Assembly: GCA_029864385.1 (NCBI GenBank)
Contig: JAOTTL010000001.1
Location: 101 to 64,100 of the forward strand
Reading direction: 5' to 3'
From: Betaproteobacteria bacterium
GTDB taxonomy: Bacteria; Pseudomonadota; Gammaproteobacteria; Burkholderiales; SG8-41
DNA length: 64,000 nt
Shown here: positions 1,264 to 55,714 of the stretch, piece by piece
Layout: the number at the start of each line of letters is the position of its first letter
Numbering within the stretch: position 1 is the stretch's first letter
The notes under the pieces: generated by a model
Seen by the model: only the letters and a program-made list of their open reading frames with translations
Told to the model about the DNA's origin: nothing
The model's database searches: none
Made by a program: the position numbers and the translations under genes

Positions 1264-1436
1264 CCAAAGGCGTGACGGGTGACGGGTGACGACGGACGGT
1301 TCAGTCCACTCACCATTCACCAGTCACGGAAATTGATGAACCGCCAAGACGCGAAGAGAAGCAAGGATCAAGACCGGTTATTGATCACCCGTCACCCGTC
1401 ACTCATCACCTCTTAAATTCTAGTCACACGTCACGC
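1264..1436. repeat. mosaic palindromic intergenic element (heptamer arms GTGACGG x3 / TCACCCG x2)
   Basis: GTGACGGGTGACGGGTGA (1272-1289) is the exact reverse complement of TCACCCGTCACCCGTCAC (1385-1402). The core is homologous to 12879..13005. Confidence 0.85.
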
Positions 1437-1482
1437 TGTACGAAGCCCTAACACAACCATACCCAAGCGGTCTGTCTCACCA

Positions 1483-3228
1483 ATGGATTTGATGAAAAGC
1501 GAAACGCGCGATGGCATGCGCATCGACTGGGATGCGCCGATCCCGATGGATGACGGCGTCGTGCTGCGCGCCGACGTCTTCCGCCCGCTGGGTGAGGGCA
1601 AGGTACCGGTGATCATCAGTTACGGGCCGTACGCGAAGGGACTGGCGTTCCAGGAGGGCTTCAAAAGCGCCTGGGTGCGCATGACGACGAGTTATCCCGA
1701 GACGGCAGAAGGCTCCTCCAATAAATATCAGAACTGGGAGCTCGTCGATCCGGAGAAATGGGTGCCCTGGGGCTACGCCTGCGTGCGCGTCGATTCGCGC
1801 GGCGTCGGCCGCTCGCCCGGCTTTCTTGATCCGCTCTCGCCGCGTGAGGCGCAGGACTTCTACCACTGCGTCGAATGGGCCGGCACGCAGCCGTGGAGCA
1901 ACGGCAAGGTCGGGATCAGTGGCATCTCCTATTACGCGCAGACGGGCTGGCTCGTGGGCCCGCTGCGTCCGCCCCACCTTGCGGCATTGTGCGCGTGGGA
2001 GGGGGAGTGCGATTACTACCGCGAGTGGTCGCGTCACGGGGGCATCCTGTGCGGCTTCGCCGAGAGCTGGTACCGGCGCCAGGTGGTGAGCGTGCAGCAC
2101 GGCGTCGGCGAGCGCGGCCCGCGCAGCCGCGTCACCGGCGAGCCGGTGGCGGGACCCGAAACGCTGCCGGAAGAAGAGCTTCGCAAGAACCGGGTCGATC
2201 ACGCCGGCGATTTGCTCCGCCACCCGCTGATCGACGACTACTATCGCCCGCGCCTGCCGGCGCTGGAGAAGATGACCGCGCCACTGCTCTCCGCGGCGAA
2301 CTGGGGCGGGCAGGGGCTGCATCCGCGCGGCAACTACGAAGGCTGGCTGCGCGCCGGCAGCAAGCAGAAATGGCTGGAAGTGCACGGCGACACCCACTTC
2401 TCGCACTTCTACACCCACTACGGGCAGGGGCTGCAAAAAAAGTTCTTCGACTATTTTCTCAAAGGCGAAAAGAACGGCTGGGACAAGCAGCCGCGCGTCT
2501 CGCTCAACATCCGCCATCCCGGTGAGAAATTCGCGCCGCGCGGCGAGAACGAGTGGCCGCTTGCGCGCACGCAGTGGACGAAGTACTACCTCCACGCGGA
2601 TGGCCATGGCCTCTCGACCAGGAAGCCCGAGGGCGAGACGACGATCGTCTACGAGACGAGCGGTGACGGCGTGACGTTCCTCACCGCGCCCTTGAAGGAG
2701 GAGATCGAGATTACCGGCCCGGTGGCCGCGAAGCTTCGGGTGTCCTCGGACACGACCGATGCCGACCTCTTTCTCGTGCTGCGCGTGTTCGACCCGGCCG
2801 GCAAGGAGCTCGTCTTTCTCGGCTCCAACGACCCGCGCACGCCGATCGGCCTGGGCTGGCTTCGCGCCTCGCACCGCAAGCTCGATCCGGAAAAGACGCT
2901 GCCCTACCGGCCCTATCACACGCACGACGAAGAGCAGCCGCTCACACCCGGCGTAGCGGTGGAGCTCGACGTCGAGATCTGGCCGACCTGCATCGTGGTG
3001 CCCCCGGGCTACCGCATCGGCCTCTCCGTGCGCGGCAAGGACTACGAATTCGACGGCCCGCCCATGGAGATTCCGCACGCGCCGTATCCGATGCGCGGCG
3101 TTGGCCCCTTCACGCACCAGCATCCCGAGGATCGTCCGCCGGCGATTTTCGGGGGCAAGAACACGCTGCATTTCGGCGGGGGCGACAAGGCGCCGCATGT
3201 GCTGCTGCCCGTTATTCCCAAGGCGTGA
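1483..3228 (+). CDS. CocE/NonD family hydrolase (S15 X-Pro dipeptidyl-peptidase-like)
   Basis: 581-aa ORF with nucleophile elbow GISGISYYAQTGW (GxSYxG) and a long C-terminal beta-sandwich-like region. The TGA stop (3226-3228) lies inside the first GTGATGG repeat unit. Confidence 0.8.
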   Translation: MDLMKSETRDGMRIDWDAPIPMDDGVVLRADVFRPLGEGKVPVIISYGPYAKGLAFQEGFKSAWVRMTTSYPETAEGSSNKYQNWELVDPEKWVPWGYACVRVDSRGVGRSPGFLDPLSPREAQDFYHCVEWAGTQPWSNGKVGISGISYYAQTGWLVGPLRPPHLAALCAWEGECDYYREWSRHGGILCGFAESWYRRQVVSVQHGVGERGPRSRVTGEPVAGPETLPEEELRKNRVDHAGDLLRHPLIDDYYRPRLPALEKMTAPLLSAANWGGQGLHPRGNYEGWLRAGSKQKWLEVHGDTHFSHFYTHYGQGLQKKFFDYFLKGEKNGWDKQPRVSLNIRHPGEKFAPRGENEWPLARTQWTKYYLHADGHGLSTRKPEGETTIVYETSGDGVTFLTAPLKEEIEITGPVAAKLRVSSDTTDADLFLVLRVFDPAGKELVFLGSNDPRTPIGLGWLRASHRKLDPEKTLPYRPYHTHDEEQPLTPGVAVELDVEIWPTCIVVPPGYRIGLSVRGKDYEFDGPPMEIPHAPYPMRGVGPFTHQHPEDRPPAIFGGKNTLHFGGGDKAPHVLLPVIPKA

Positions 3229-3322
3229 TGGGTGATGGGTGATGAGTGACGGGTGACGCGTTAGGCTAGGGTAGAATCAACTTGAGCCGTTCACCGTTCA
3301 CCGTTCACCGGTCACGAATCAC
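3225..3322. repeat. mosaic intergenic element (GTGATGG/GTGACGG left, CCGTTCA x3 and GTCACGAATCAC right)
   Basis: Tandem 7-nt units are read directly from the sequence. Confidence 0.8.
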
Positions 3323-3365
3323 AAGAAGTTGGGCGTTTGGCTGCGGCTAATTGATCCTCGCGGTT

Positions 3366-5246: not shown

Positions 5247-6515
5247 ATGTTACGCAAACTCAAAACGGGGCTTACTTGGTGGATCCCGCTGGGCGTCGCC
5301 GCGCTCGGCATCGGCTTGGCCTCTGGGCCGGCCGGCGCCGCGGAGGAACTTCGCATCGGGTTCGTCGCGCCGATGACGGGGATCTTCGCCCAGATCGGCA
5401 AGGACATGAGCAACGGATTCCAGATGTACGTGGACGAGGTCGGCGGTAATTTCGCCGGCGCCAAGGTGAAGTTCATTCTTGAAGACGGCCAGGGCAAGCC
5501 GCCGATCAACGTCCGCAAGGCTGAAAAGCTCGTCCGCCAGGACAACGTGCAGATGTTCATCGGCGGGCTGCTCGCCTCGACCGGCTACGCGTTGGCGCCC
5601 GTGAGCACGCGGCTGAAGACGGTCTACATTCCTTCCATCGCGGCGGCGGACGATCTCACGCAGCGCGAGGCGTCCAAGTATCCGTACGTGGTGCGCACCG
5701 GCTGGACCAGTTCCCAGCCCAATCACCCGTTCGGTGCGTGGGCCTGCGAGCAGGGCTACAAGAAGGTCGTGACGGTTGGCGCCGACTACGCTTTCGGCTA
5801 CGAGGTCATCGGCGGATTCCAGAAGACCTTCGAGGACTGCGGGGGCAAGGTCATCCAGAAGATCTGGCCGCCGCTGGGAACGAAGGACTTCGGACCGTTC
5901 ATCCCAACCATCAAGGATGACGCTGACGCAATCTTCACGCTCATGGTTGGGCCGATGTCGCTGCAGTTCCCGAAGCAGCTCGCCGCCGCAGGGATTAAGA
6001 AGCCGGTGCTGGGCGGGGGAACGAGCTACGACGAGTTCGTGCTGCCGTCGATGGGGGACGAAGTGATAGGCCACGTCTCGGCGCTGCAGTACAGCGCGGC
6101 GCTCGACACTCCGAGGAACGCGGCGTTCGTGAAGAAGTACCGCGAGAAATACGGCAAGGTGCCGTCGTACTACTCGGAGAGCAACTACACCACTGCGCAG
6201 ATGATCCACGAGGTCATGAAGAAGACGGGCGGCAAGTGGCCGGGCGCGGAGAAGTTCGTCGAGCTGCTCGCGAGCGTCCAGCTCGACAGCGTGCGCGGCC
6301 CGGTGCGCCTGGACGAGATGCGCAACCCGGTGCACAACATCTACATCCGCAAGGTCGAGAAGAAGAAGATGCACGGCTACGGCGAGGACGAGCTCTGGAA
6401 CACGGTCATCAAGACCTACCCCAACGTGAGCCAGTTCTGGACGTACAAGAAGGCCGACTTCCTCAAGCAGCCGGTCTATAGCCGCACGTTCCCGCCGTGT
6501 AAGTACTGCGAGTAA
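5247..6515 (+). CDS. ABC transporter substrate-binding protein (LivK/type I periplasmic binding protein family)
   Basis: 422-aa ORF with strong RBS AAAGGAGGGG. Signal peptide (LTWWIPLGVAALGIGLASGPAGA), then LRIGFVAPMTGIFAQIGKD, typical of Leu/Ile/Val-binding family proteins. Confidence 0.85.
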   Translation: MLRKLKTGLTWWIPLGVAALGIGLASGPAGAAEELRIGFVAPMTGIFAQIGKDMSNGFQMYVDEVGGNFAGAKVKFILEDGQGKPPINVRKAEKLVRQDNVQMFIGGLLASTGYALAPVSTRLKTVYIPSIAAADDLTQREASKYPYVVRTGWTSSQPNHPFGAWACEQGYKKVVTVGADYAFGYEVIGGFQKTFEDCGGKVIQKIWPPLGTKDFGPFIPTIKDDADAIFTLMVGPMSLQFPKQLAAAGIKKPVLGGGTSYDEFVLPSMGDEVIGHVSALQYSAALDTPRNAAFVKKYREKYGKVPSYYSESNYTTAQMIHEVMKKTGGKWPGAEKFVELLASVQLDSVRGPVRLDEMRNPVHNIYIRKVEKKKMHGYGEDELWNTVIKTYPNVSQFWTYKKADFLKQPVYSRTFPPCKYCE

Positions 6516-6590
6516 CGCGTTCTCGGCTGCCGGGCGACGCCGCCATTCTTGATGCGCGGCGTCCGCCCGCTTGATTGTTAAAGAGCGTGG

Positions 6591-6800
6591 CTAGTGACTG
6601 GTGACTAGTGCTGAAGAAGTGACGGGTGACGGGTGATGCGTGACGGGGCCTAACCCTGGTGATGGGTGATGGGTGATGGGTGATGGGTGATGCGTAACTG
6701 CTCTTGATTCTTGCTGTTCTTGGCGTCTTGGCGGTTCAATGTTGGAGCTTATCGGCGTATATCGGCGTCCATCGGCGGCTAATTCTGGTCCTGGATTTTT
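6591..6800. repeat. large mosaic element inside the liv cluster (GTGACTGGTGACTAGTG module, GTGACGG x2, GTGATGG x5, CTTGGCG module)
   Basis: Modules recur at 13901-14179, 29840-29876 and 47172-47196 (the last in inverted orientation). Confidence 0.85.
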
Positions 6801-8334: not shown

Positions 8335-8340
8335 TTTACG

Positions 8341-8368
8341 GTGACGAGTGACGAGCGACGGGTGATGG
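8341..8368 (+). repeat. short heptamer array GTGACGA GTGACGA GCGACGG GTGATGG
   Basis: Read directly. Lies 7 nt after the LivF-like stop. Confidence 0.7.
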
Positions 8369-8522
8369 AAGAGCTGCCGAGGGGTCTGACCCCTTAGCGC
8401 GGTCCATTCATCATTCGCGATGCACAGTCCTTGAGTCACGCTGTCCCAGCTGCCCGGCTCGGTTTGAGCACTAACCCCCCCTCGCCTTCGACCCCGACTC
8501 GCTGATACGATTTCCGGCGCGT

Positions 8523-11502: not shown

Positions 11503-11637
11503 GAGCTCCTCCTTGTTATTGACACTCGCCCTTGCAGGCCCTCTCACGAAGGGTAGCACTTGATGACTGCAAGAAAAGAATAAGTGACGACTGATGGGCT
11601 GTAAACCGCCGTCAATGATATGCGTTGTTGGTGCTTA

Positions 11638-12003
11638 ATGGACCGTCCATCCGCCCATCAAATTTTGCTGGCATGGCGCGAGGCCATTGCCCTGGTAGAG
11701 GCCGTATACCGGGACACCGCGTGTTTCCCGAAGGAGGAAACCTTCGGCCTGACGGCGCAGCTCCGGCGAGCCGCGGTCTCCATTCCTTCGAATGTTGCAG
11801 AAGGCGCGGCAAGGAATACGTCGGGGGAGTTGGTTTAGTTCCTCGGGATCGCCTGCGGATCGCTGGCGGAAGACGAGACACAGCTGTTGGTGGCCATTCG
11901 ATCGGGCTTTCTAAAGGCGGACGCCGCGTCCGTCACCCAAACCGCCCGTGTCGGCAAGTTGGTGAGGTCCCTGCGCAAGTCCCGTAAAAACCAAGGTAAA
12001 TAG
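11638..12003 (+). pseudogene. four-helix-bundle protein (23S rRNA intervening-sequence protein family) interrupted by an in-frame TAG
   Basis: Family motifs FPKEETFGLTAQLRRAAVSIPSNVAEGAARN lie before the TAG at 11836-11838. FLGIACGSLAEDETQLLVA continues in the same frame to TAG 12001-12003. Confidence 0.7.
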
Positions 12004-12016: not shown

Positions 12017-12098
12017 GTCACTGCTTTCCATCCCGTCTGTCGTCACCTCTTCAGGTGTCGTCAGCCGTCACCGCTTCAGCCGCCGTCAGTCGTCACTT
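12017..12098. repeat. TCAC-type word array (GTCGTCAC / GCCGTCAC / GTCAGTCGTCAC)
   Basis: Repeated xGTCAC words on the plus strand upstream of the endonuclease gene. Confidence 0.6.
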
Positions 12099-12162
12099 CG
12101 TTGGTATGTACACTAAAATTGGGTGTCTCCCACCTACCCTTGGCAATGTTAGAACAGAAGCA

Positions 12163-12882
12163 ATGTTAGAACGAAGAAAAACGAGCTTTCTCGCCACCCT
12201 CGCCGACACGCCGTGGTGGATCGCCTTGGTCCTTGCGGTCATCGCCTACCTGTTCATGCGCTTCGGGTTTGCGGCGCTGATGCCGCCGGACAGGACGGCG
12301 CAGACCGTGGCGGATGGCATGGCGCAGATGGCCTGGGTCTTTACGCTGCCGTTCCTGCTCGCCGCGGTCGTGTCGCTGCTGCGGCGGGTGTTTCGCGGGC
12401 GGTCGCGCGACCAGCGCGGGAGCCTTGTTGCGCTCCGCGTATTGCCGCGGCATCGGTTTGAGCTCTTGGTGGCCGAGGCCTTCGGGCGGCAAGGCTACGT
12501 GGTCGAACCGCGCGGCAGCCGCGCGCCGGACGGCGCGGTCGACCTGGAATTGTGGCAGGACGGTAGGAAGAGTATCGTGCGGTGCCGGCACTGGCAGGCG
12601 CGCCAGGTTGGCGCCCCCCTGATCCGCGAGCTCTATGACGCGATGAGAGCCGAGCGAGCGGACGAGGCGATCTTCCTTTCGAGTGGGCACTATACCCACG
12701 AGGCGTGGCAATTTGGGGGGGGCAAGCCCCTTCGCCTGATCGACGGCGACGGGCTGCTGCATCTCCTGGCGGGCGTTTGGGACGTGCCGCCGGCGCGCGC
12801 CGGTCATGTCCAGTCGCGCGTCGAGCCGCGCATTGGCGCCCTGGGCGAAGATCGTGACCAGCGACCCGTGCTCAAGAAGTGA
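12163..12882 (+). CDS. restriction endonuclease (Mrr-catalytic-domain) protein with N-terminal transmembrane segments
   Basis: FELLVAEAFGRQGYVVEPRGSRAPDGAVDLELW...IVRCRHW resembles the Mrr_cat core. N-terminal hydrophobic helices. ATG at 12163. The stop TGA lies inside a GTGATGAGTGACGG repeat. Confidence 0.65.
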   Translation: MLERRKTSFLATLADTPWWIALVLAVIAYLFMRFGFAALMPPDRTAQTVADGMAQMAWVFTLPFLLAAVVSLLRRVFRGRSRDQRGSLVALRVLPRHRFELLVAEAFGRQGYVVEPRGSRAPDGAVDLELWQDGRKSIVRCRHWQARQVGAPLIRELYDAMRAERADEAIFLSSGHYTHEAWQFGGGKPLRLIDGDGLLHLLAGVWDVPPARAGHVQSRVEPRIGALGEDRDQRPVLKK

Positions 12883-13005
12883 TGAGTGACGGGTGACGCG
12901 TGACGGTTCGGTCCACTCACCATTCACGGAAGTTAATGAACCGCCGAGACGCCGAGAGAAGCAACAGTTAAGAGCAGTTAGTCGTCACCCATCACGCCGT
13001 TCTTG
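12879..13005. repeat. mosaic element homologous to 1264..1436
   Basis: Shares GTGAYGRGTGACGGGTGACG, GACGGTTCRGTCCACTCACCATTCAC and ATGAACCGCCRAGACGCSRAGAGAAGCAA, and ends with TCACCCATCAC. Confidence 0.85.
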
Positions 13006-13025: not shown

Positions 13026-13904
13026 ATGCGCAACCCGCACGATCTCATCCCCTTTTCCGCTATCGTCGATCGGCCGCGGCTGCGGCTGCCGGGCAACGCG
13101 CGGCTGGTGGTGTGGCCGGTCGTCAACATCGAGCAGTGGGAAATCGTGCGGCCGATGGCGCGCCAGGTCATTCCCGCGCCAAGCGGGGTGTCGGTCGTGC
13201 CGGATTTTCCGAACTGGAGCTGGCACGAGTACGGGATGCGCGTCGGCATCTGGCGGATTTTCGATGCGCTGGCGAAATACGGCATCACGCCCACGCTCTC
13301 GATCAACGCCAACGTGTGCAACGTTTACCCGCGCGTGGCGCAGGCCGCGGTCGACGCCGGCTGGGAGTTCCTCGGCCACAGCTTCGTGCAGATGCCGATC
13401 CACCAGCTCGAGGACCAGCGCGCAGTGATTCACAAGTCGCTCGACACGATCGAAAAGTTCACGGGCAAGCGCCCGCTCGGCTGGATGGGCCCGGGGCTCA
13501 CTCAAACCTACGAGACGGTCGACTATCTTGCGGAAGCGGGCGTCAAGTACGTCGCGGACTGGGTGCTCGACGACCAGCCGTGCGAGCTCACGACCGCGCA
13601 CGGGTCCCTGATCGCGATCCCCTACACCGTCGAGTTGAACGACATCCCCATGATGATCGTGCAGCACCACGAGTCTGATCATTTCATGAAGCGCTCGATG
13701 GAGAGCTTCGACCGGCTCTACCAGGAGGGCGCCGACATCGTGCGCGTCATGGCGATCGCAATGCATCCGTACATCACGGGCCAGCCCTTCCGTATTAACT
13801 ATTTCGAGCGGCTGCTTGAGTACATGAAGGGCTACGAGGGTGTCCTCTTCTGGACCGGGGAGCAGATTTATGACTGGTATCTCGACGCCCGAAAAAAACC
13901 GTGA
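13026..13904 (+). CDS. polysaccharide deacetylase family protein (PuuE/allantoinase-like)
   Basis: 292-aa ORF. WSWHEYGMRVGIWRIFDALAKYGITPTLSINANV and GWEFLGHSF are typical of the NodB-fold deacetylase/PuuE group. Confidence 0.7.
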   Translation: MRNPHDLIPFSAIVDRPRLRLPGNARLVVWPVVNIEQWEIVRPMARQVIPAPSGVSVVPDFPNWSWHEYGMRVGIWRIFDALAKYGITPTLSINANVCNVYPRVAQAAVDAGWEFLGHSFVQMPIHQLEDQRAVIHKSLDTIEKFTGKRPLGWMGPGLTQTYETVDYLAEAGVKYVADWVLDDQPCELTTAHGSLIAIPYTVELNDIPMMIVQHHESDHFMKRSMESFDRLYQEGADIVRVMAIAMHPYITGQPFRINYFERLLEYMKGYEGVLFWTGEQIYDWYLDARKKP

Positions 13905-14179
13905 CTAGTGACTGGTGACCAGAACAAACCAAGAACGAATTTAACCGCAGATAAACGCAGATACACAGAGATAGAACAACAACCAAATGCTTTATCAGCC
14001 GCCGATATACGCCGATAAGCTCCAACATTGAACTGCCAAGACGCCAAGAGAAGCGAGAATTGGGAGCACTTACTCATCACTCGTCACGCCTCTCAACCCC
14101 GTCAGTCGTCAGTCGTCACGCTTCTCCAACCGCCGGCAGCCGTCACTTCTTAAGCTCGAGTCACAAGCCACTGGTCACG
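13901..14179. repeat. large mosaic element (GTGACTAGTGACTGGTGAC, CGCAGATAAA words, inverted copy of the 6694..6784 module, TCAC-type right arm)
   Basis: 13991..14073 is the reverse complement of 6694..6784 with few mismatches by eye. Confidence 0.85.
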
Positions 14180-14217
14180 ATGTATCATGTGATCCGTTAC
14201 CAAGAAAGATTCGTCTC

Positions 14218-15102: not shown

Positions 15103-15109
15103 AAAGCAT

Positions 15110-15262
15110 TAGCCACAGATAAACACAGATACAACGAAAATCAAAACCGAATATTGGCCGTCAATTCACGCGGATTAATGCCGATCACAGAGCCGTGAAT
15201 CGGAGGCGAAACGCACCGCACCTCTCTGAACGCCAGTCACAAGTTACAGGTGACGGGGTTCA
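15110..15262. repeat. mosaic element (CACAGATAAACACAGATA, GTGAATCGG, CAGTCAC...GTGACGGGG)
   Basis: Shares the TTAGCC(R)CAGATAAAC module with 13940, 26535, 28247 and 47145. Confidence 0.6.
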
Positions 15263-17516: not shown

Positions 17517-17526
17517 CGCCGATGCT

Positions 17527-17585
17527 CACGGAACGGTGAACGGTGAACGGACTGGAACTTCCGTAAATCGTGAATCGTGAATCGG
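17527..17585 (+). repeat. heptamer arrays GGTGAAC x2 and CGTGAAT x2
   Basis: Read directly, downstream of the VOC gene. Confidence 0.75.
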
Positions 17586-17696
17586 AAAGTTGCACGTTTG
17601 AGATCGCAAATTGCGACCTCAAACGTGCCGCCTTCGAAGCATTCAGTTGAAATGCGAAATCGACCCATCGCGGTTATTCGAGCAACCAGCACCGCC

Positions 17697-19386: not shown

Positions 19387-19563
19387 AAATGGGGACAGAC
19401 CCCACCAAACTAAAGGCGGAAGGCGGAAGGCGGAAGGCGGAAGGCCATAACCCCCGTCTTGGGTGCTGGGTGCTGGGTGATGGGTGATGCGCCTCAACAC
19501 TCGTGATGGGTGACCGACGGTTCGGTTTTAGTCCCTTCACCACTCGCTATTCACCATTCACGC
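19387..19563. repeat. mosaic element: (GGCGGAA)x4, (GGGTGCT)x2 (GGGTGAT)x2, then TTCACC-type right arm
   Basis: Read directly, in a divergent promoter region. The segment GACGGTTCGG...CACCATTCAC is shared with 1291-1320 and 12902-12930. Confidence 0.85.
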
Positions 19564-19668
19564 CTTTCCATAACTAGGAACAGACGCCATCGAACGGTCT
19601 TTGTATAATCCTACGTCAGTTCTCCAACCGTGCCATCGATCAACAGCACCTAAGAGGAGAGAAAGACT

Positions 19669-20652: not shown

Positions 20653-20671
20653 ATGCCGTCGCTGGGGGGAA

Positions 20672-20753
20672 CTGAAGGCAGAAGGCGGAAGGGCCTTACG
20701 ATCCGTGATGGGTGATGGGTGATGGGTGATGGGTGATGGGTGATGGATGATGT
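20672..20753 (+). repeat. mosaic element: GAAGGCAGAAGGCGGAAGG then (GTGATGG)x5
   Basis: Read directly. Same module order as 19415-19490. Confidence 0.85.
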
Positions 20754-20761
20754 TAACAAAT

Positions 20762-26515: not shown

Positions 26516-26534
26516 CCAGAAGCAACCGCCGACA

Positions 26535-26619
26535 GACGCAGATAAACACAGATACGATCAACGTCCAGGAAACATCGCCTACAAAGGACATTCGGTGTCA
26601 ATCTGCGTTTATCTGCGTC
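26535..26619. repeat. inverted repeat of the CGCAGATAAA word (19-nt arms, ~47-nt spacer)
   Basis: GACGCAGATAAACACAGAT (26535-26553) versus the reverse complement of ATCTGCGTTTATCTGCGTC (26601-26619): 18 of 19 match. Confidence 0.8.
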
Positions 26620-26647
26620 TCCATCCGGTTTTGTGAGGGCATTGCAA

Positions 26648-28249
26648 GTGAGCGTGACCGCCTCCTTCGAGCCGCTCACCCCGACGTCTTTCCTTTTGCG
26701 GTCGGGCCGGATCTACGCGGATCGCACTGCGGTTATCGACGACGCCTACCGCTGCAGCTATGGCGAGTTTCTCGACCGCTGCCTGCGGCTCTCCGGCGCG
26801 CTGCGCAATATGGGTGTTGCCGAAGGCGGGCGGGTCGCGGTGCTCGCGCCCAACACCCGCGTGCTGCTCGAGTCCCATTACGGCGTGCCGTTTGCCGGCG
26901 CCGTGCTGGTGGCGCTCAATCCGCGGCTCACGGCCGCCGAGCTCGCAACGATCGTCGCGCACAGCGGCGCGCAGGTGCTGATCTACGACTACGAGTTCGA
27001 AGCGGCTGCCCAGGATATCGCCGCGCAGGCGGGCGGCGAATTGCGGCTGGTACGGGGCGGGCGGCCCGATGACCAGTACGAGCGGCTGCTCGACAGCGCT
27101 GCTCCATGGCGCCGGCCGGTCGCCGACGAGCGCGGATTGCTCTCGATCAATTACACCAGCGGCACCACGGGCACGCCCAAGGGAGTCATGTATCACCATC
27201 GGGGAGCCTACCTGCAGGCGCTCGCGATGGCGATGGAGACGCAACTCGACTGCGACAGCACGTTCCTGTGGACGCTGCCGATGTTCCACTGCAACGGCTG
27301 GTGCTTTCCGTGGGCCGTCACCGCCGCGGGTGCGGCGCACCTTTGCCTGCGCAGGTTCGATCCGGGGCTGGTGTGGGGCCACTTGCGCGATTCCGGTGTC
27401 ACTCATTTCAATGGCGCGCCCACGATACTCGTCATGCTCGCGTGGCATACGGGCGTGGCGCGGCTGCCCCGACCGGTGCGCGTCGGCACGGGCGGCGCGC
27501 CGCCGACGCCGGCAATCTTGCAGCGCATGGCTGAACTGGGCATGGACGTAACCCAGCTCTACGGGCTTACCGAGACCTTCGGGCCGGCGGTGATCTGCGA
27601 ATGGCGCGGTGAATGGAGCCGGCTTGGGATGGAGGAACAGGCGAGGCTCAAGGCGCGCCAGGGCGTGGGAAACGTGGTTTCGAGCGAAGTGCGCGTCGTC
27701 GATGCGCATGGCAACGACGTGCCCGCCGACGGGGCGACATTAGGGGAAATTGCGCTGCGCGGAAACAACGTGATGCTCGGCTATTACCTGGACGAGATCG
27801 CCACCCGCAAGGCCGTGCCGGACGGCTGGTTCAGGACCGGAGATCTCGGCGTGATGCATTCCTACGGCTACGTCGAGATCAAGGACCGGTCCAAGGACAT
27901 CATCGTGTCGGGCGGCGAGAACGTCGCCTCGATCGATATCGAGCGCGTCTTGTGCTCCCATCCAGCGGTGATGGAAGCCGCGGTGGTTGCCGGGCCCGAT
28001 CCCAAATGGGGCGAGGTGCCGGTCGCATTCGTCACGCTCAAGACCGGTGCCGCCGCGAGCGAAGCCGATTTGGTCGCCCACGCGCGCGAGCGCATGGCGC
28101 ACTTTAAGGCGCCGAAGCGGATCGTGTTCAGCGAGCTGCCGAAGAACGCGACGGGCAAGATCCAGAAGTTCGTGCTGCGCGAGCGCGTGCGGGAGCTGAT
28201 GAAGGCGGAAACGCAACCGCCGACGAAGACCAGCCCAAGAATCATTTAG
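26648..28249 (+). CDS. acyl-CoA synthetase / AMP-dependent ligase
   Basis: AMP-binding motifs INYTSGTTGTPKGV, TGDLGVMHSYGYVEIKDRSKDIIVSGGENV, PKNATGKIQK. GTG 26648 follows GAGGG. The track ORF starts at 26633. Confidence 0.85.
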   Translation: MSVTASFEPLTPTSFLLRSGRIYADRTAVIDDAYRCSYGEFLDRCLRLSGALRNMGVAEGGRVAVLAPNTRVLLESHYGVPFAGAVLVALNPRLTAAELATIVAHSGAQVLIYDYEFEAAAQDIAAQAGGELRLVRGGRPDDQYERLLDSAAPWRRPVADERGLLSINYTSGTTGTPKGVMYHHRGAYLQALAMAMETQLDCDSTFLWTLPMFHCNGWCFPWAVTAAGAAHLCLRRFDPGLVWGHLRDSGVTHFNGAPTILVMLAWHTGVARLPRPVRVGTGGAPPTPAILQRMAELGMDVTQLYGLTETFGPAVICEWRGEWSRLGMEEQARLKARQGVGNVVSSEVRVVDAHGNDVPADGATLGEIALRGNNVMLGYYLDEIATRKAVPDGWFRTGDLGVMHSYGYVEIKDRSKDIIVSGGENVASIDIERVLCSHPAVMEAAVVAGPDPKWGEVPVAFVTLKTGAAASEADLVAHARERMAHFKAPKRIVFSELPKNATGKIQKFVLRERVRELMKAETQPPTKTSPRII

Positions 28250-28410
28250 CCGCGGATAAACGCAGATAAACGCAGATCGAAAACAATACAGAACCGCCAA
28301 ACAAGACAACAGCAATAAATGAACCGCGGAGACGCGGAGAGAAACAAACGACAATTCACGAATCACGATAGTTAGGGCCGCCGGTCACGTCAAGACATGT
28401 GTCACGACAA
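28247..28410. repeat. mosaic element: TAGCCGCGGATAAACGCAGATAAACGCAGAT, GAACCGC(G/C)RAGACGC module, TTCACGAATCACGA
   Basis: Read directly. The stop codon TAG of the acyl-CoA synthetase is its first triplet. Confidence 0.8.
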
Positions 28411-29688: not shown

Positions 29689-29728
29689 CGCCAGCCATCA
29701 ACATCAATAGAGTCAGACACCATTTAAC

Positions 29729-29876
29729 GTGACGGGTGACAGGTGATGGGCTTTAACTTCATGACTCGTCACTCGTCACTCGTCACTCGTCACTCGTCAC
29801 TCGTCAGTCGTCACTCATTACTTGTCACGCCCTATGAAGCCGCCGTTAGTCGACACTTCTTCAGCACTAGCCACCA
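29729..29876. repeat. mosaic element: GTGACGGGTGACAGGTGATGG left, (TCACTCG)x5-6, inverted GTGACTGGTGGCTAGTGCTGAAGAAGTG module right
   Basis: Read directly. The right end is the reverse complement of 6594-6625 with few mismatches. Confidence 0.85.
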
Positions 29877-29907
29877 GTCACGCTTTAACAGATTTGGAGG
29901 GGTAACC

Positions 29908-30159: not shown

Positions 30160-30242
30160 GTTACTGAAGGCGGAAGGCCGTGCACCAGAACTGGTGATAG
30201 GAACTGGTGGTGGAGATCCTGGTGATGTGTACTCGTGATGAG
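30160..30242 (+). repeat. short mosaic: CTGAAGGCGGAAGGCC then CTGGTGAT-type words
   Basis: Shares CTGAAGGC(R)GAAGG with 20672. Confidence 0.55.
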
Positions 30243-30393
30243 GCGGGCAACGCACTTTTCCATCACCATTATTCGTCGCTCCTTGGCAGGAAATCTGGTG
30301 GCTAGTGCACGCGAGCCTGCCGCTCACGCAACGCTACGCACCCGACATCGCCCGCAACTATCAGATCGCACCCCCAGTCCGGCTCGCCCGCAC

Positions 30394-41413: not shown

Positions 41414-41438
41414 TCATTCCTCTCCGTTTACTGAGTGT

Positions 41439-42811: not shown

Positions 42812-42997
42812 GTTTGTGGGGACGCGTCCAGGCACGGTAGGCTGCGAGGGCAAGCAGGGTGGCGAGGATGCCGGTCGTCGGGATATGCCGCCAAGAAAAG
42901 GGGATTTCTTCTACCTGGGATGGGAGAAATTGATCCTTCCGGGGGGCGATGAACGAGCATAGACTTTGAGCATTGCGTTGATGCGTTCAGGGGGGTG

Positions 42998-46891: not shown

Positions 46892-47086
46892 CGGCGCCAG
46901 TTCGTCAGCGGCCGGAGAGCTCTCGCAGGGGTACCCGCATGGATCTGGGCATCAGGGATGGCCAGGGACGGGACATATCCGTGGCTATGCCACGCAGAGG
47001 CCGGGTCGGCCAGTTGGCCACCATTCGATTTGGGTTCTCTTACACTACTCGGAAATGGTGGTCCGTCCATTTTTTGTCACAGGGCC

Positions 47087-47215
47087 GTGAATCGTGAATC
47101 GTGAAACGTGAATCGGACCCCGTTTAGAACCCAGAGTTAGCCGCAGATAAACGCACCCATCACCAGGGTTAGGCCCCGTCACCCATCACGGGGTTTGAGA
47201 AGCGCATCACCCATC
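47087..47215. repeat. mosaic element between convergent genes: (GTGAATC)x3-4 left, CGCAGATAAACGC, inverted GTGACGGGGCCTAACCCTGGTGATG, CATCACCC right
   Basis: 47172-47196 is the reverse complement of 6645-6669. Confidence 0.85.
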
Positions 47216-50116: not shown

Positions 50117-50124
50117 CGATTAGT

Positions 50125-50272
50125 CATCAATCACCGCCACCACGCAGTTGTTCGAGTGCAGATCAATCCCGCTATACTTCTTCATTGAATGCCTCCTCAC
50201 GTTAAGGTTTGACATCGGACCTCAGCTTTAACCCCGCCGCACGCGGCGGCGAGGAGGAGGAGGCCTTCTAGA
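50125..50272 (-). mobile_element. solo copy of the IS110-family 5-prime module (leader plus first ~19 codons)
   Basis: Near-identical by eye to 35273..35414, with an extra GGAGGA. Reads MKKYSGIDLHSNNCVVAVIDD then a stop. Flanked by GATTAGTCA at 50118-50126 and 50274-50282. Confidence 0.6.
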
Positions 50273-52355: not shown

Positions 52356-53096
52356 ATGACGTTTGAATTTGAAGAGCTGGACTACCAGGAAACCCTGCTG
52401 GGTAAAATCAGTCTCAGGCGCCGGGCGGAACCCAAACTCGAAGGGGAAATTCTCTACGAGGTGAAGCTCGGCGACGAGTTCCTGATGTCCAGCCTGTTTA
52501 CCAAGGCCGAGATTCAGCTTGCGAGACTCGGGCTCGCCGAGCTTGAAGGTACCGGCCTGGACATCGTGGTCGGCGGATTGGGTCTGGGCTATACAGCGGT
52601 TGCGGCTCTGGAAGACCCGTCAGTCAGGTCGCTCATGGTCGTTGAGGTGATGGAACCGGTTATCAACTGGCACCGTCGGGGCCTCGTACCGCTTGGGAAG
52701 AAATTGGTGTCGGACCCCCGTTGCACTCTTGTCCATGCCGACTTTTTTGAAGTTGCATCATCATCAGGCGGCGGATTCGATCGCGCAGCCCCGACCCAGC
52801 TGATTCACGCTGTGTTGCTGGATATTGATCATTCACCCAGCCATTGGCTTAACCCGGGAAACAGCGCTTTTTATACGGCGCCGGGGCTTCGGAACCTGGC
52901 TGACAAGCTCCATCCCGGCGGAATCTTCGGGCTGTGGTCCAACGATCCGCCGGATGCAGAATTCACTCGTCTGCTCGATACCGTATTCCAGTCTTCCGAG
53001 TCTCATATTGTGACCTTTCCGAACCCCTATTCGGGCGGGGAGTCGTCCAACACGGTCTACCTCGCCCACAAGAGAAAATCTACCCGTCTCCCATGA
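52356..53096 (+). CDS. spermidine synthase-like SAM-dependent methyltransferase-fold protein
   Basis: DIVVGGLGLGYTAVAAL, VVEVMEPVINW, LLDIDHSP pattern typical of spermine/spermidine-synthase-like proteins. Confidence 0.65.
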   Translation: MTFEFEELDYQETLLGKISLRRRAEPKLEGEILYEVKLGDEFLMSSLFTKAEIQLARLGLAELEGTGLDIVVGGLGLGYTAVAALEDPSVRSLMVVEVMEPVINWHRRGLVPLGKKLVSDPRCTLVHADFFEVASSSGGGFDRAAPTQLIHAVLLDIDHSPSHWLNPGNSAFYTAPGLRNLADKLHPGGIFGLWSNDPPDAEFTRLLDTVFQSSESHIVTFPNPYSGGESSNTVYLAHKRKSTRLP

Positions 53097-53482: not shown

Positions 53483-53579
53483 CCGCAACGCCTAACCCTG
53501 CGCTGAATGGTGTCGGCGCACGCGACATCAGTGAGGTCCCAAGTGCTCGCGTCCCGAGCTAAGAGTCACCAGTCACGCC

Positions 53580-54077: not shown

Positions 54078-54116
54078 CTACCGGCCGGGATCCGTTGATT
54101 AGGGAATCATATTGGG

Positions 54117-54194
54117 AAAACGGGGTCAGTGTAGCTTTGTTGCCCACAGTGGGGAAGCGGGGTCACAGGGACGTAAGCTTTACACTGACCCATT
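54117..54194. repeat. doublet of second REP-like family (AAAACGGGGTCAGTGTAGCTTTG ... AAGCTTTACACTGACCCATT)
   Basis: Imperfect inverted arms, between the divergent pilin gene and the 478-aa gene. Confidence 0.7.
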
Positions 54195-54241
54195 GACCCA
54201 CGATGCCGGACAAACGATGACCACTTCTTGATTGAGTGCTC

Positions 54242-55678
54242 ATGAATTCAATCACTGTCGCACTCGCCAAACTAATCGTCGCGCTCGCGATCGCCACGGG
54301 CGCCTGGTGGTTCGCCGCCGGGCAGGGCTGGATTCCTGGTCGGCTGGATTCACCGCGTGCTGAGAACTTCAAGCGCGCGATCGACCAACACCTCGAACTC
54401 GAGGCCGGGCCGACTTCGCGCGCCTGTGCGCGGCTGCGCCTGCGGCAGCCGGCGGACGGCATGGGCCCGCCGGGGGTGCGCTTTGACTGGACGCCGGCAG
54501 GCTTTGCCATCACCGTCGACGAGCGGCGCGAGCCGCAGCCGCAACTCGCGCGCCAGATTGCGCTCCTCGCCGCGCAGGGATTCTTCGATGCCAAGCCGCT
54601 CGAGGACGGCGCCATCGACTACGCGCTGACATGGAAAGGCTTTGCCGCTTCGCCGCGACAGGGCTGCTTCGAGATCGCGGGCAGGGATTACGACGCCGAG
54701 GTACTCTCGTTCAAGCGCAAGGAAAAGGCGGGTGATGTCACGCTCTACGAGGTGATCGCGCGCCCCACGCTGGGCGGTGTCGCCGCATGGGCGCAGACGC
54801 CCGAATTTCGCGAGGCCTTCGGTGAGCAAACGCTCCGCCGCACGCTCGAGCCCGAGCCGGTAGCCTTCGAGCTCGCGCGCATCGAAGGCGGATTCGACGT
54901 GCTCATGATGCGCGGCCGCCCGCGCCAGCGCGGCGCGATGGATCCCCTGCTCGCGAGCCGCCTCGCGGGCGAGTTCACCGCCGAGCGTCTGCGCGGCGCG
55001 ATCAATACTTGGCTGAGCGGCCGCGGCGCGCAGAGCGCCCGCGTCTGCCTGCAACTGCCGCGCGCGAATGAGGCGGACGAAACCACGATTCGCCGTGCGC
55101 GCCGAACGCGCGCGGCGCAGGACGAACAGATCACCTACACCTTTTACAACCTGCTCACGCGCCGGGGTCGCGCGGAGGAGCGCGTGCTGACCGGCTACCA
55201 GAGCTTGCGCACGCTCGAATCGCTCGGCCTGGCGAAATCCGAATTGTTAGCGGCCGAAGAATTCAAGGGCAGCCCCGCTGCGGGCGCCGTACGCTTCACG
55301 CTGTCGCCCGAGTTCGCCGAGCGCATCGTGGCCGACGGGCGCAGCTGTGTCCCGGTCGGGACGGTGCAGCTCGACGACCTGCTGCGCTTCGACCCGATTA
55401 GCGCCTCGAACCCGATGCCGCAGTTCAATGCGCGTGTCGCGCTGAAGGCCTACGACGCGCAGGCCGAAGCCTTGATCAAGGCTTATCCTCACCTTGCGCG
55501 CCTGCAGGCCGTCGGCGGCGCATTGCGCGGCTTGGTTTACTACAGGGACCGCAGCATCGAGGTGAGGTCCGCGCAGCTCATGCTGCCCCATTACCAACCC
55601 GACCTGAGTGGTGTGGTGCCGCCGACGGTCGATGGACCCGCGGCGGTGCAGATCGGGCCGCCCGCGCAGAAACCGTGA
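54242..55678 (+). CDS. hypothetical membrane-anchored protein
   Basis: About 478 aa with one N-terminal TM (ITVALAKLIVALAIATGAWWFAA). No recognisable domain. The stop TGA lies inside GTGACGG. GTG 54236 is an alternative start. Confidence 0.5.
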   Translation: MNSITVALAKLIVALAIATGAWWFAAGQGWIPGRLDSPRAENFKRAIDQHLELEAGPTSRACARLRLRQPADGMGPPGVRFDWTPAGFAITVDERREPQPQLARQIALLAAQGFFDAKPLEDGAIDYALTWKGFAASPRQGCFEIAGRDYDAEVLSFKRKEKAGDVTLYEVIARPTLGGVAAWAQTPEFREAFGEQTLRRTLEPEPVAFELARIEGGFDVLMMRGRPRQRGAMDPLLASRLAGEFTAERLRGAINTWLSGRGAQSARVCLQLPRANEADETTIRRARRTRAAQDEQITYTFYNLLTRRGRAEERVLTGYQSLRTLESLGLAKSELLAAEEFKGSPAAGAVRFTLSPEFAERIVADGRSCVPVGTVQLDDLLRFDPISASNPMPQFNARVALKAYDAQAEALIKAYPHLARLQAVGGALRGLVYYRDRSIEVRSAQLMLPHYQPDLSGVVPPTVDGPAAVQIGPPAQKP

Positions 55679-55714
55679 CGGCTGACGGCGGCTTAAGAGG
55701 TGACGGGTGACGGG
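55675..55714 (+). repeat. GTGACGG-type words spanning a stop codon and the next putative start
   Basis: CGTGACGGCTGACGGCGGCTTAAGAGGTGACGGGTGACGGGG. TGA 55676-78 ends the upstream ORF. GTG 55707 is the track start of the next ORF. Confidence 0.7.

Follow-up and report, generated by a model that had tools for sequence, protein, structure and literature searches.

The window, by which we mean the whole stretch of 64,000 nucleotides analyzed, is a metagenome contig from an uncultured soil or sediment betaproteobacterium of an SG8_41-type lineage. A sequence-only reading had placed short tandem arrays at 17 coordinates in its spacers, and arrays were found at all 17 by Tandem Repeats Finder, an exact period-7 scan (20 clusters, the longest 43 nt), and direct reading. 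The words it quoted (GTGACGG, GTGATGG, GTGAATC, GGTGAAC, TCACTCG, GGCGGAA, and CGCAGATAAA) are all present in the window. The elements are given below, followed by two short sites that were absent from that first list.

E1, 1264..1440, + strand: (GTGACGG)3, TCAC words, a GAAC module (1338-1362), further TCAC words, and an outer end module; starts 6 nt past the stop of gene 2-1258; inner hairpin 1268-1330, fold z=-3.9.
E2, 3222..3325, + strand: five GTGA words, a 31-nt loop, and five TCAC words; a peptidase gene has its stop codon in the first word (3226-3228, the TGA of a GTGA word); computed fold energy -44.9 kcal/mol (z=-4.3).
E3, 6583..6795, + strand: one-armed, in the livK-livG spacer, with an end module, about 11 GTGA words, and antisense GAAC and CCGATA modules; the reverse complement of E7 in two stretches (81-86%); G4-type motif at 6664-6687; its computed fold had no significance.
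E4, 8338..8445, + strand: GTGA words, an inner GC hairpin (GAGGGGTCTGACCCC), and a degenerate TCAC arm, 3' of livF; z=-2.6.
E5, 12017..12100, + strand: TCAC/TCAG-type words with a 25-nt period (Tandem Repeats Finder); matches the end module at 55666-55714 in reverse complement (80-89%).
E6, 12850..13000, + strand: end module, four GTGA words, TCAC words, a GAAC module (12938-12962), and TCAC words; one architecture with E1 (85% identical); the Mrr gene stops within a word (12880-12882, the TGA of a GTGA word).
E7, 13898..14182, + strand: full composite of left end words, CGCAGATAAA, CCGATA, and GAAC modules, TCAC words, and a right end module; the left end words contain the stop of a deacetylase gene (13902-13904, TGA inside a GTGA word).
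E8, 15107..15145, + strand: CATTAGC-(CACAGATAAA)2 module immediately 3' of hisG; direct repeat match D2.
E9, 17525..17590, + strand: (GAACGGT)3 and (GTGAATC)2-3 with G-U pairing only, then a separate hairpin; fold -20.2 kcal/mol on the + strand versus -11.0 kcal/mol on the - strand.
E10, 19408..19565, + strand: (GAAGGCG)4-5, TGGGTGC/TGGGTGA words, GTGA words, and TCAC words, in a divergent spacer; G4-type motif at 19461-19484.
E11, 20670..20755, + strand: GAAGGCG words and (GTGATGG)6-7, a single arm; G4-type motif at 20710-20733; a perfect hairpin with 17-bp arms lies 3' of it (20762-20801).
E12, 26525..26630, + strand: hairpin with CGCAGATAAA-type words in the left arm and TTTATCTGCG words in the right arm; z=-6.1.
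E13, 28244..28410, + strand: ATTTAGC-(CGCAGATAAA)3, a GAAC module variant (28321-28345), and TCACGAA words, every module sense and without a complementary arm; the module leader contains a gene's TAG stop (28247-28249); direct repeat match D2; computed fold not significant.
E14, 29726..29884, + strand: three GTGA words, (ACTCGTC)9, and a right end module; repeat match I11 (87%).
E15, 30160..30290, + strand: GAAGGCG words and spaced GGTGAT words with a TCAC partner; repeat match D12.
E16, 47083..47195, - strand: GTGA words with a GGGGCCTAACCC core, an antisense CGCAGATAAA module, and TCAC-type (ATTCACG) words, read on the - strand behind gene 47231-48451; 97% to 6633-6668 (inverted).
E17, 55666..55730, + strand: end module GTGACGGCTGACGGCGGCTTAAGAGGTGACGGGTGACGG; the first word contains the stop of gene 54236-55678 (TGA at 55676, inside a GTGA word); repeat matches D10, I8, and I12.
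53560..53579, - strand: short end-module fragment, GTGACTGGTGAC, directly 3' of a pilin gene.
60405..60440, - strand: CCGCGGATAAACGCGGA module, sense, behind gene 60468-61655.

The motif GTGANNNGTGA (GTGA-N3-GTGA) matched 58 times on both strands of the window, against 1.59 +/- 1.3 expected from 100 dinucleotide-preserving shuffles (shuffle maximum, 5), and all except about three matches lay in spacers or gene ends. The intergenic space had been called saturated with such elements. That is so for bases 1-31 kb, where they occupy about 15 of 26 spacers and about 40% of spacer bases (summed by reading), but not for 31-64 kb, which holds two of the listed sites, the two short unlisted ones, and no others.

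It is well supported that every element combines small modules into a mosaic, with a word of 7, 8, or 10 nt repeated in tandem two to nine times in each module. Such modules include (GTGAYGG)n or (GTGANTC)n, GAAC-(CGCCAAGA)2-GAAGC, TTAGC-(CGCAGATAAA)2-3, and (GAAGGCG)n. The earlier description of mosaics that draw on a small repertoire of tandem-word modules, in variable order and orientation, stands. All three longer modules that it named were located: GTGACGGGGCCTAACCCTGGTGATG in exact copies at 6640 (+) and 47158 (-); GTGACTGGTGACTAGTGCTGAAGAAGTG exactly at 6594 (+), with one mismatch at 29854 (-), and with five at 14144 (-); and GAACCGCCAAGACGCCAAGAGAAGC, which has no exact copy, in five copies with one to five substitutions (1338+, 6713-, 12938+, 14030+, and 28321+). 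Dispersed module copies inside the window are 84-97% identical. In the heptads, a 4-nt core is invariant and three spacer positions vary, often being noncomplementary between arms. The length of GTGA arrays has a local peak at four units (two units, 79; three, 32; four, 43; five, 10). The commonest words, GTGATTC, GTGAATC, and GTGAGTC, have no G-tract, a terminal GG is found in only 68 of the 512 phased GTGA words from betaproteobacterial contigs, and arrays without a G-tract carry the four-unit peak (62, 28, 37, and 8 for two to five units). The dispersed module TCGAA-(TCACGAN)4 has four units as well, and modules with 8-, 10-, and 37-nt periods and different words keep the same layout.

The typical form, also well supported, is an imperfect hairpin with about four heptads per arm, capped by a small GC-rich hairpin. 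GTGA words were on the left and TCAC words on the right in all seven two-armed elements of the window, as had been reported. Many elements are imperfect palindromes, which makes the proposed analogy with BIME/REP apt as a concept, but the palindrome claim fails for the one-armed E3, E11, E13, and E17. Significant folds were found for E1a, E2, E4, E9, and E12 (z from -2.1 to -6.1). The whole-element fold was significant for only about half, the other window elements being one-armed or without a significant fold. Across 55 two-armed elements, the mean MFE was -41 kcal/mol per approximately 98 nt. The flanks prolong the palindrome (AAA(G)GC on the left, GC.TT on the right), with an A-tract before it and a T-rich tail after it. 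Because this tail is only 2-3 bases, the elements are not canonical intrinsic terminators. Stem-plus-U-tract terminators in 1-40 kb were themselves not above chance (17 versus 14.8 and 15 versus 15.7), so most gene ends must be marked by something else. Sense and antisense RNA hairpins did not differ in stability (n=38, p=0.83), and one-directional selection at the RNA level is therefore not detectable. The word numbers of the two arms were not correlated (r=0.09).

Placement relative to genes was biased. Elements begin at a stop codon or within a few bases of one, and five window genes end inside an element. The statement that no gene model explains the elements needs a qualifier, because these five genes take their stop codon from one. 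The GTGA array was ahead of the TCAC array in 71 cases versus 3 over all loci and 17 versus 0 in GTDB genomes of other phyla, and the GAAC module was ahead of its complement in 21 versus 0. Behind gene 3' ends the GAAC module was sense in 55 cases versus 19, and between codirectional genes in 37 versus 12; 7 of 74 were in divergent spacers. Two-armed elements lay between codirectional genes in 38 cases, convergent genes in 12, and divergent genes in 5. The 60 nt 3' of stop codons had a purine skew of +0.078 (p=0.001), whereas 5' flanks had no significant skew. It is well supported that the purine-rich, T-poor version is on the strand reading away from the adjoining gene and that the pyrimidine-rich complement often follows. 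In the window and in L120, L121, L123, L245, and L246, an element lies behind the periplasmic binding-protein gene livK within the liv transporter cluster, which is a REP-like position.

Orthologous spacers of four related assemblies, one of them CP070703.1 (a 3.3-Mb genome), hold the same kind of element, and at least 120 metagenome stretches contain the GAAC module. Therefore, the elements are neither an assembly artifact nor local to the window. The window shares further modules with two betaproteobacterial MAGs, L003 and L062. Elements are kept at the same spacers across relatives with approximately 88-94% hisG DNA identity. Their words and copy numbers differ there, turning over very fast, with little sequence conservation besides the loops. 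For example, the E2 loop is kept in the orthologous spacer of L121, where the arms differ. The orthologous spacers of E4 in L120 and L123 hold GTGA..TCAC pairs, and the leader and words of E8 recur in L062 and also 3' of hisG in L120 and L123. When L245 was compared with L246 (hisG DNA 94% identical), both arms had one additional word at two different spacers, with the loop unaltered, and the interior of the LivF-Mrr spacer was entirely different. Over its left 106 nt, E7 shares 88% identity with an element in a nonorthologous L246 spacer, whereas alignment of the orthologous spacers extends over just 44 nt. Word number alters by slipped-strand mispairing, both arms can gain one word together, and elements at separate loci exchange interiors through recombination, gene conversion, or some copy-paste process.

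Several known systems are comparable. Enterobacterial REP/BIME and Pseudomonas REPINs are extragenic, lying between cistrons and 3' of genes (binding-protein genes of ABC transporter operons, for instance, are followed by them), and are imperfect palindromes with mosaic units in both orientations and hundreds of copies. The elements described here share the extragenic placement, imperfect palindromes, mosaic units, and copy numbers in the hundreds. However, they have no REP consensus or GTAG head, no RAYT gene was seen in the window, and their arms are tandem words of variable number rather than a fixed 35-40-nt palindrome. Neisserial intergenic mosaic and Correia elements are short-unit intergenic mosaics bounded by inverted repeats; they are alike as mosaics, by description, but their units are not tandem-word arrays. 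Cyanobacterial STRR, Beggiatoaceae TAACTGA repeats (PMC4679880), and Geobacter metallireducens heptanucleotides (PMC2700814) are likewise intergenic tandem heptamers, at tens to hundreds per genome, but with other words and hosts. TAACTGA is found just 5' of start codons and in inverted repeats in 1 of 170 sets (PMC4679880). The LSSR survey of Mrazek et al. 2007 (units of 5-11 nt), as summarized in PMC4679880, found heptanucleotides to be the commonest long SSR class in bacteria, with Burkholderia (Betaproteobacteria) among the richest genomes, and proposed slippage as the cause. In that summary, arrays are treated singly, and inverted pairing, purine-first order, mosaics, and module dispersal fall outside the description.

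A close likeness is to the G-rich heptamers of Xanthomonas (GGGAATC) and Nostoc (GGGGAYT), which Rehm et al. 2015 ascribed to G-quadruplexes (PMC4692102). Those are approximately 90% intergenic, on the coding strand beside stop codons, with 70-75 convergent inverted pairs per genome, a preference for four units, and few copies between divergent genes. Close relatives keep the spacers, and lengths and sequences differ and vary fast (PMC4692102). The elements here share the G-rich-arm-first layout, proximity to stops, four-unit preference, rarity in divergent spacers, and change of length and sequence at conserved sites among close relatives, and their commonest word, GTGANTC, is one position from GGGANTC. 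Since the period and inverted layout are shared, the 7-nt inverted layout is not an unknown kind. The earlier impression of an unrecognized family must be given up for that layout (PMC4692102) and appears to hold for the word set.

In our view the best explanation is that the elements are hairpins at the boundaries of transcription units, evolving through slippage and recombination, although we put it a little short of an even chance. An element would mark such a boundary and work in both directions. A polymerase that has left a gene would meet the purine-/G-rich nontemplate strand and nascent RNA first, an orientation that in vitro gives stable RNA:DNA hybrids and an orientation-dependent block. 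The complementary arm would then complete a long hairpin that could pause or terminate transcription and shield the upstream mRNA 3' end, as REP does after binding-protein genes. Roles in transcription termination, pausing, and mRNA stabilization are all putative. In favor of a boundary are the spread of the elements, their placement at stop codons, the purine-first order, the hairpins with their flanks, the REP-like position behind livK, and the changes between L245 and L246. Counting against it are E10, which sits in a divergent, promoter-side spacer, the short T-rich tail, the equal stability of sense and antisense hairpins, the uncorrelated word numbers of the arms, and the roughly half of window elements that are one-armed or lack a significant fold. 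As outlined in two reports, G-/purine-rich nontemplate strands cause orientation-dependent transcription blockage in vitro, in experiments with T7 RNA polymerase and long homopurine runs (PMC3561996, PMC5499740), whereas the words here are mixed.

A serious rival, although on balance unlikely, is that the elements are a functionless by-product. Slippage would expand words, template switching would create and even out palindromes, recombination would spread modules, and selection would remove only harmful copies, namely those in promoters or those extending reading frames. The location and orientation biases could then come from purifying selection against promoter insertions, with no positive function needed. 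The very fast turnover with low conservation except in loops, the lack of a sense/antisense fold bias, the uncorrelated arm lengths, and the numerous degenerate or one-armed copies all fit this, as does the abundance of heptamers as the commonest long SSR in many bacteria, with slippage proposed (as summarized in PMC4679880; also PMC4692102). Furthermore, most purine-rich words carry TGA or TAA and the period is not divisible by 3, so a purine-first element at a gene end stops translation at once, and five genes end in elements. However, Xanthomonas GGGAATC words have no stop codon and are also purine-first, so a stop-codon filter is not the general cause. The nearly absolute purine-first rule (71:3 and 21:0), the persistence at the same spacers across relatives, the sense bias of the GAAC module between codirectional genes, and the four-unit peak also speak against a mere by-product.

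Nonautonomous mobile elements (MITE- or REPIN-like), with a trans-acting transposase encoded elsewhere and the GTGA/TCAC arrays as inverted terminal binding sites, seem very unlikely to us. The inverted end module GTGACTGGTGACTAGTGCTGAAGAAGTG does lie at the outer ends of E3, E7, and E14, the same composite occurs at nonorthologous sites of related genomes, and copies are dispersed within the window and through metagenomes. However, none of the window genes scanned against Pfam had a transposase or Y1 (RAYT) domain, and reading of E1, E2, E7, and E14 found no target-site duplication (a 6-nt match at E14 is part of the module leader). There is no conserved GTAG/CTAC head as in REPs, module content varies so that the elements are not copies of one master, and the inverted heptamer layout also occurs in unrelated phyla with other words.

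Arrays of protein-binding sites, with the GTGA/TCAC core read every 7 nt, are just as doubtful. The target might be RNA, bound by HutP- or TRAP-type oligomers on spaced triplets, or DNA, bound by a nucleoid-associated or boundary protein. An invariant core with variable, often noncomplementary spacer positions suits such arrays, as do the four-unit peak, present also among words without G-tracts, and the same core and period in several phyla. However, no candidate protein was identified, descent from the one dispersed module TCGAA-(TCACGAN)4 can explain the four-unit peak, and modules with quite different words and periods have the same layout. G-quadruplex-forming regulatory repeats, as proposed for Xanthomonas and Nostoc, are largely refuted as a general explanation and have hardly any chance of being correct: layout and four-unit preference agree with the published family and (GGGTGAT)n and (GGGTGAC)n with at least four units fit a G3-N4 motif, but only 3 of about 17 window elements have such an array (6664, 19461, and 20710), and most words, including those that produce the four-unit peak, have no G-tract, so the published explanation does not fit.

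The elements thus differ from the Xanthomonas and Nostoc heptamers in having a GTGA rather than a GGG core, so that most words cannot form a quadruplex; in words that mostly carry TGA in all three frames; in joining heptamers to modules of 8-, 10-, and 37-nt periods in mosaics; and in their host, an uncultured betaproteobacterial lineage. An Rfam search of the 8- and 10-nt-word modules gave no match even at E<=1, and these modules had no match by sequence in the literature searched. The word set (a GTGA core, mostly without a G-tract), these modules, and the carrier lineage therefore appear to be undescribed. It is well supported that the family consists of lineage-wide intergenic repeat elements in uncultured SG8_41-type Betaproteobacteria, and they elaborate, in a form specific to this lineage, on the heptamer repeats already described in Xanthomonas, Nostoc, and Burkholderia.

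The sequence-only reading had described short tandem arrays of 7-nt and 10-nt words between genes, and Tandem Repeats Finder returned period-7 arrays at the sites it named. Its quoted words and its three longer modules were all found, two of the three modules exactly. An exact scan of the window gave 20 clusters of perfect heptamer repeats (longest, 43 nt), and GTGANNNGTGA occurred 58 times where shuffles predict 1.59 (shuffle maximum, 5). When all window spacers were read, the arrays sat in spacers or on gene ends; as tandem runs of at least two units, mostly intergenic, the window arrays resemble the heptamers of Rehm et al. 2015. Summed from this reading, elements occupy about 15 of 26 spacers in the dense zone at 1-31 kb, roughly 40% of spacer bases, and are sparse at 31-64 kb. 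Two short copies had not been listed before:

53560-53579, short element copy
60405-60440, short element copy

The window has a G+C content of 59-66% and encodes ordinary metabolism and transport (a liv-type ABC transporter, several TctC receptors, hisG, prpD, and acyl-CoA enzymes). Its HisG shows 93% identity to the HisG of both 'Betaproteobacteria bacterium SG8_41' and CP070703.1, a betaproteobacterial genome of 3.3 Mb, which places the host among the uncultured Betaproteobacteria of this lineage. Between 31000 and 64000, several genes have lower third-position G+C, e.g., 35417-36928, 40491-41417, and 52356-53096. The sparse-element, lower-GC3 second half might be a sign of more recently acquired DNA.

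An element starts at the stop codon itself or a few bases 3' of it. The TGA within a GTGA word is the stop for four window genes, and the TAG of a module leader is the stop for one. The proximal part is built of purine-rich words (GTGAYGG, GTGANTC, GAAGGCG, and CGCAGATAAA) and the distal part, where present, of words complementary to them. Between these arms lie T-poor modules, each made of two to three tandem words and a short leader:

GAAC-(CGCCAAGA)2-GAAGC, the GAAC module
TTAGC-(CGCAGATAAA)2-3, inter-arm module
CCGCCGATATACGCCGATAAGC, inter-arm module

An outer module, GTGACTGGTGACTAGTGCTGAAGAAGTG, and its complement border several elements. Both words of one module are mostly the same variant (CCAAGA, CCGAGA, or CGGAGA), the pattern expected from repeated slippage contraction and re-expansion. 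Among the numbered window elements, the predicted RNA folds of E1a (the inner hairpin of E1, 1268-1330), E2 (3222-3325), E4, E9, and E12 (26525-26630) were much stabler than those of shuffles (z, -2.1 to -6.1). Those of E3 (6583-6795), E6, E11 (20670-20755), E13, and E16 were not far stabler. Therefore, the palindrome is common but not universal. The word numbers of the two arms were uncorrelated (r=0.09).

The GAAC module was present in at least 120 JGI metagenome stretches and, among the matches listed, occurred singly, in mosaics with other modules, or as a 37-nt minisatellite. One JGI metagenome contig has 14.6 copies of the minisatellite (L134, 187-733). Such tandem units are not a CRISPR array (23- to 50-nt repeats, unique spacers of similar length), because their spacers are not unique; a 25-nt module plus a conserved spacer of about 12 nt makes up the 37 nt. 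Two metagenome-assembled genomes (MAGs), L003 and L062, have modules in common with the window. In L062, which is betaproteobacterial, two word types are interleaved at 5500-5730 in the order A, B, A', B' (CACAGATAAA, CGCAGATAAA, and their complements in the same order), which is no simple nested hairpin. Cultured or named bacteria from other phyla carry GTGAYGG arrays of 15 to more than 30 units. The hosts of the very long arrays are Marinobacterium aestuariivivens, a Steroidobacter MAG, a Streptomycetaceae MAG, and Roseofilum halophilum, and the arrays are at these places:

L117, 2265-2369
L119, 715-819
L007, 2717-2863
L107, 5728-5951

The arms follow a nearly strict order. Across the full set of loci, the TCAC array came after the GTGA array in 71 cases and before it in 3. 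The GTGA-left, TCAC-right layout proposed from the sequence was borne out by all seven two-armed window elements. In GTDB genomes from other phyla, selected only by possession of GTGAYGG x3 and including Nitrospira, Acidobacteriota, Verrucomicrobiota, Bacteroidales, and Steroidobacter, the phased TCAC partner lay downstream 17 times and upstream never; long open reading frames (ORFs) there also terminate in or beside the arms, from both sides. Likewise, the complement of the GAAC module was downstream 21 times and upstream 0 times. Because the palindrome is identical on both strands, this purine-first rule means a purine-rich 5' arm on either strand. Purine skew in the 60 nt past window stop codons was +0.078 (p=0.001), with no positive skew in the window's 5' flanks. 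By crude GC3-based gene calls, the GAAC module lay behind a gene end in the sense orientation 55 times versus 19 (37 versus 12 between co-directional genes), only 7 of 74 modules were in divergent spacers, and 55 two-armed heptamer elements divided into 38 co-directional, 12 convergent, and 5 divergent.

Tentatively, we propose that the elements act as transcription-unit boundaries on polymerases from either side. What points to such a role is their position at gene ends and avoidance of promoter-side spacers, their A-rich and T-rich flanks together with the scarcity of canonical terminators, and a conserved element after the binding-protein gene livK within the transporter cluster. A site behind a binding-protein gene is the classical REP position (malE-malF and hisJ-hisQ), where REP stabilises the upstream mRNA. 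Two reports describe G-rich or purine-rich sequence as blocking transcription in vitro only on the non-template strand, via stable RNA:DNA hybrids (PMC3561996, PMC5499740). The observed arm order would place the purine-rich strand as non-template from both directions, and the complementary arm would then close a hairpin of about 28 bp. The purine-first rule thus fits a boundary role, since blockage from the non-template strand only would be satisfied from both directions.

Several familiar signals fit the elements poorly. A canonical intrinsic terminator is a GC-rich stem-loop with at least five T in 8; here the palindrome continues into the flanks as AAA(G)GC ... GC.TT, so that the tail past the 3' arm is GC and then 2-3 T only. 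A scan for canonical promoters and stem-plus-T-run terminators gave counts at chance level and did not pick up the elements. Rho-loading (rut) sites may be a poor match: the TCAC arms are C-rich and G-poor, but the sense modules have about as much C as G. Some words do not appear to fit pairing of the Shine-Dalgarno or anti-Shine-Dalgarno kind (GGTGAT with the 16S 3' end). There was no sign of RNA-level selection on the sense strand, as sense and antisense fold energies were alike (n=38, p=0.83; window elements mixed). TGA or TAA is present in many purine-rich words, and because their period is no multiple of three, translation halts in all frames where an element overlaps a gene end; this may ease tolerance of elements there. 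All-frame stops fit GTGA, CGCAGATAAA, and the 37-nt unit, but as the sole cause of the purine-first rule they fail for GAAGGCG, CGCCAAGA, and the Xanthomonas heptamer GGGAATC.

The sequence-only reading had allowed that the modules might be confined to the window or be assembly artefacts, which four related assemblies (from NCBI, JGI, and ENA) contradict by carrying equivalents. All four keep the window's gene order (peptidase, livH, livM, livK, livG, livF ... Mrr, deacetylase, hisG), and their corresponding spacers hold GTGA...TCAC word hairpins that differ in words and copy numbers. The E2 loop is recognisably conserved among them and the E2 arms are not. Two closer relatives from one metagenome, L245 and L246, have hisG DNA that is 94% identical. 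In the spacer after hisG and again in the livK-livG spacer, one of the two has an additional word in each arm around an unchanged loop. Their LivF-Mrr spacers have only the right-edge 36 nt in common, with unrelated interiors. In E7 (13898-14182, the window deacetylase-hisG spacer), the left 106 nt is 88% identical to the element in the L246 LivF-Mrr spacer, whereas the alignment of the truly orthologous spacers spans 44 nt only. These comparisons indicate that word number alters by slippage and that whole interiors move or swap between loci. In the main rival to a boundary role, slippage, template switching, and recombination produce the elements as tolerated by-products that purifying selection alone shapes; we consider this a serious but less likely alternative.

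We also observed a gene difference between the window and its relatives. In the relatives, a small 23S_rRNA_IVP-family gene lies between livF and the TctC gene (L120, 6046-6408), and at that site the window has a 658-aa cyclase/TPR/HD-domain gene (8523-10499). The window also has a 120-aa ORF without assignment (11625-11987), beyond the TctC gene.

Like REP/BIME/REPIN sequences, the elements are extragenic and lie at 3' ends or between cistrons. They lack the conserved 20- to 40-nt imperfect palindrome with a GTAG/CTAC head, as the arms are variable word arrays with no GTAG. Among the window genes scanned against Pfam, there was no RAYT (Y1 transposase) gene flanked by repeats. Mobilisation in trans as MITE- or REPIN-like elements seems improbable: an inverted end module is present, but the same Pfam scan of window genes gave no transposase, and no convincing target-site duplication was read at E1, E2, E7, or E14 (29726-29884). 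It is also quite doubtful that the arrays are binding sites for a protein reading GTGA every 7 nt.

Intergenic heptamers have been on record in bacteria since 1990 (the cyanobacterial STRR), still with no agreed function. As cited in PMC4679880, Mrazek 2007 reports that no long simple repeat is commoner in bacteria than the heptanucleotides and that Burkholderia is among the richest genera. The repeats described by Rehm et al. 2015, GGGAATC for Xanthomonas and GGGGAYT for Nostoc, are about 90% intergenic, with four units preferred, 70-75 'convergent' inverted pairs per genome, rarity between divergent genes, and spacers shared by sister species at different lengths; that study identified no function and suggested that the repeats form G-quadruplexes (PMC4692102). 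The elements here have the same layout. The G-rich strand begins beside the gene in convergent inverted pairs (71:3; window, 7/7), and elements between divergent genes are under-represented on our crude gene calls (5/55 two-armed elements, 7/74 GAAC modules). With duplicates removed, arrays of 2, 3, 4, and 5 units numbered 79, 32, 43, and 10, a four-unit preference for which one dispersed four-word module may be partly responsible. Unlike in those heptamers, not every unit has a G-tract, with only 68 of 512 phased words ending in GG. GTGANTC, the commonest word of the betaproteobacterial contigs, is one position apart from GGGANTC. Layout and word together make the heptamer part a variant of the described kind. 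Quadruplex regulators are highly improbable, since beyond the scarcity of GG the four-unit peak is borne by arrays without G-tracts and a G4 motif fits only three window arrays.

Rfam covariance models gave no match at the gathering score across the window and none at an E value of ≤1 in bases 1-31000. A tRNA/tmRNA search returned none, a literature search by literal module sequence returned only plant rRNA primers, and BLAST of E7 against plasmids gave no match. The earlier interpretation is supported in part. It stands for a mosaic, palindromic family, BIME-like in concept, and the modules of 8-nt and 10-nt words match nothing in Rfam or, by sequence, in the literature searched. The heptamer layout had been taken for an unrecognised kind, and it belongs to a known class.

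A wider proposal, which we think unlikely, is that purine-first word palindromes form a general gene-boundary class in many phyla, as yet unexplained. It may take in GTGANNN x4, loop, NNNTCAC x4, as well as the heptamers of Xanthomonas and Nostoc. Neither G-quadruplexes nor stop codons nor canonical termination can explain it in general. The class may be a shared way to end or insulate transcription from both sides, with the purine-rich strand non-template at entry, or it may be a mutational scar. The G-rich strand on both arms points 5' to 3' toward the centre, the same topology that a head-to-head junction of two telomere-like 3'-end extensions has. Such a scar would be left if both 3' ends of a break were extended repeatedly by slippage synthesis and then joined.

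Other repeats were seen in the window. GGGGCCAGGCTCGAATT is a second dispersed family, and downstream of E11 two of its copies pair as a perfect hairpin with 17-bp arms (20762-20801). AAA always precedes its single arms, and those at 24316 and 25082 are directly 3' of stop codons:

21330, plus strand, single arm
21376, plus strand, single arm
24316, plus strand, single arm
25082, plus strand, single arm
34844, plus strand, single arm
57828, minus strand, single arm

A 134-nt direct repeat, 96% identical, occurs at 35272-35405 and, 14.8 kb away, at 50124-50257. Both copies include a hairpin, CCCCGCCGCACGCGGCGG, just 5' of a gene, and the first overlaps the start of a small ORF with no Pfam match (35037-35333). 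A stretch of about 450 nt is duplicated in inverted orientation at 76-80% identity (17696-18155 and 42782-43350) and opens with a terminator-like hairpin, AAAAACCCCGCCGAAGCGGGGT; one copy holds a 101-aa ORF without a Pfam match, and the other adjoins a PilZ-domain ORF (42995-43747). A spacer motif, AAA(T/C)GGGG(A/T)CAG..., e.g., AAATGGGGACAGACCCCA and AAACGGGGTCAGTGTAGCTTTGT, recurs in the window and in a relative:

window, 19388-19407
window, 36940-36960
window, 54118-54145
window, 59328-59350
L245, 9118-9160
L245, about 10380-10440

This lineage is an unusually rich and clean case, with dozens of elements per 30 kb and a near-absolute orientation rule. Its words exclude the quadruplex explanation, and many related metagenome contigs let word gains and losses and module swaps be traced. 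The elements are also a source of gene-end change, because five window genes draw their stop codon from one. The cross-phylum purine-first rule and the failure of quadruplexes sharpen the old open question on heptamers. Should the elements be no more than by-products, they still strongly mark slippage and recombination. Should they terminate or insulate transcription, current predictors would be missing a type of terminator in GC-rich uncultured bacteria.
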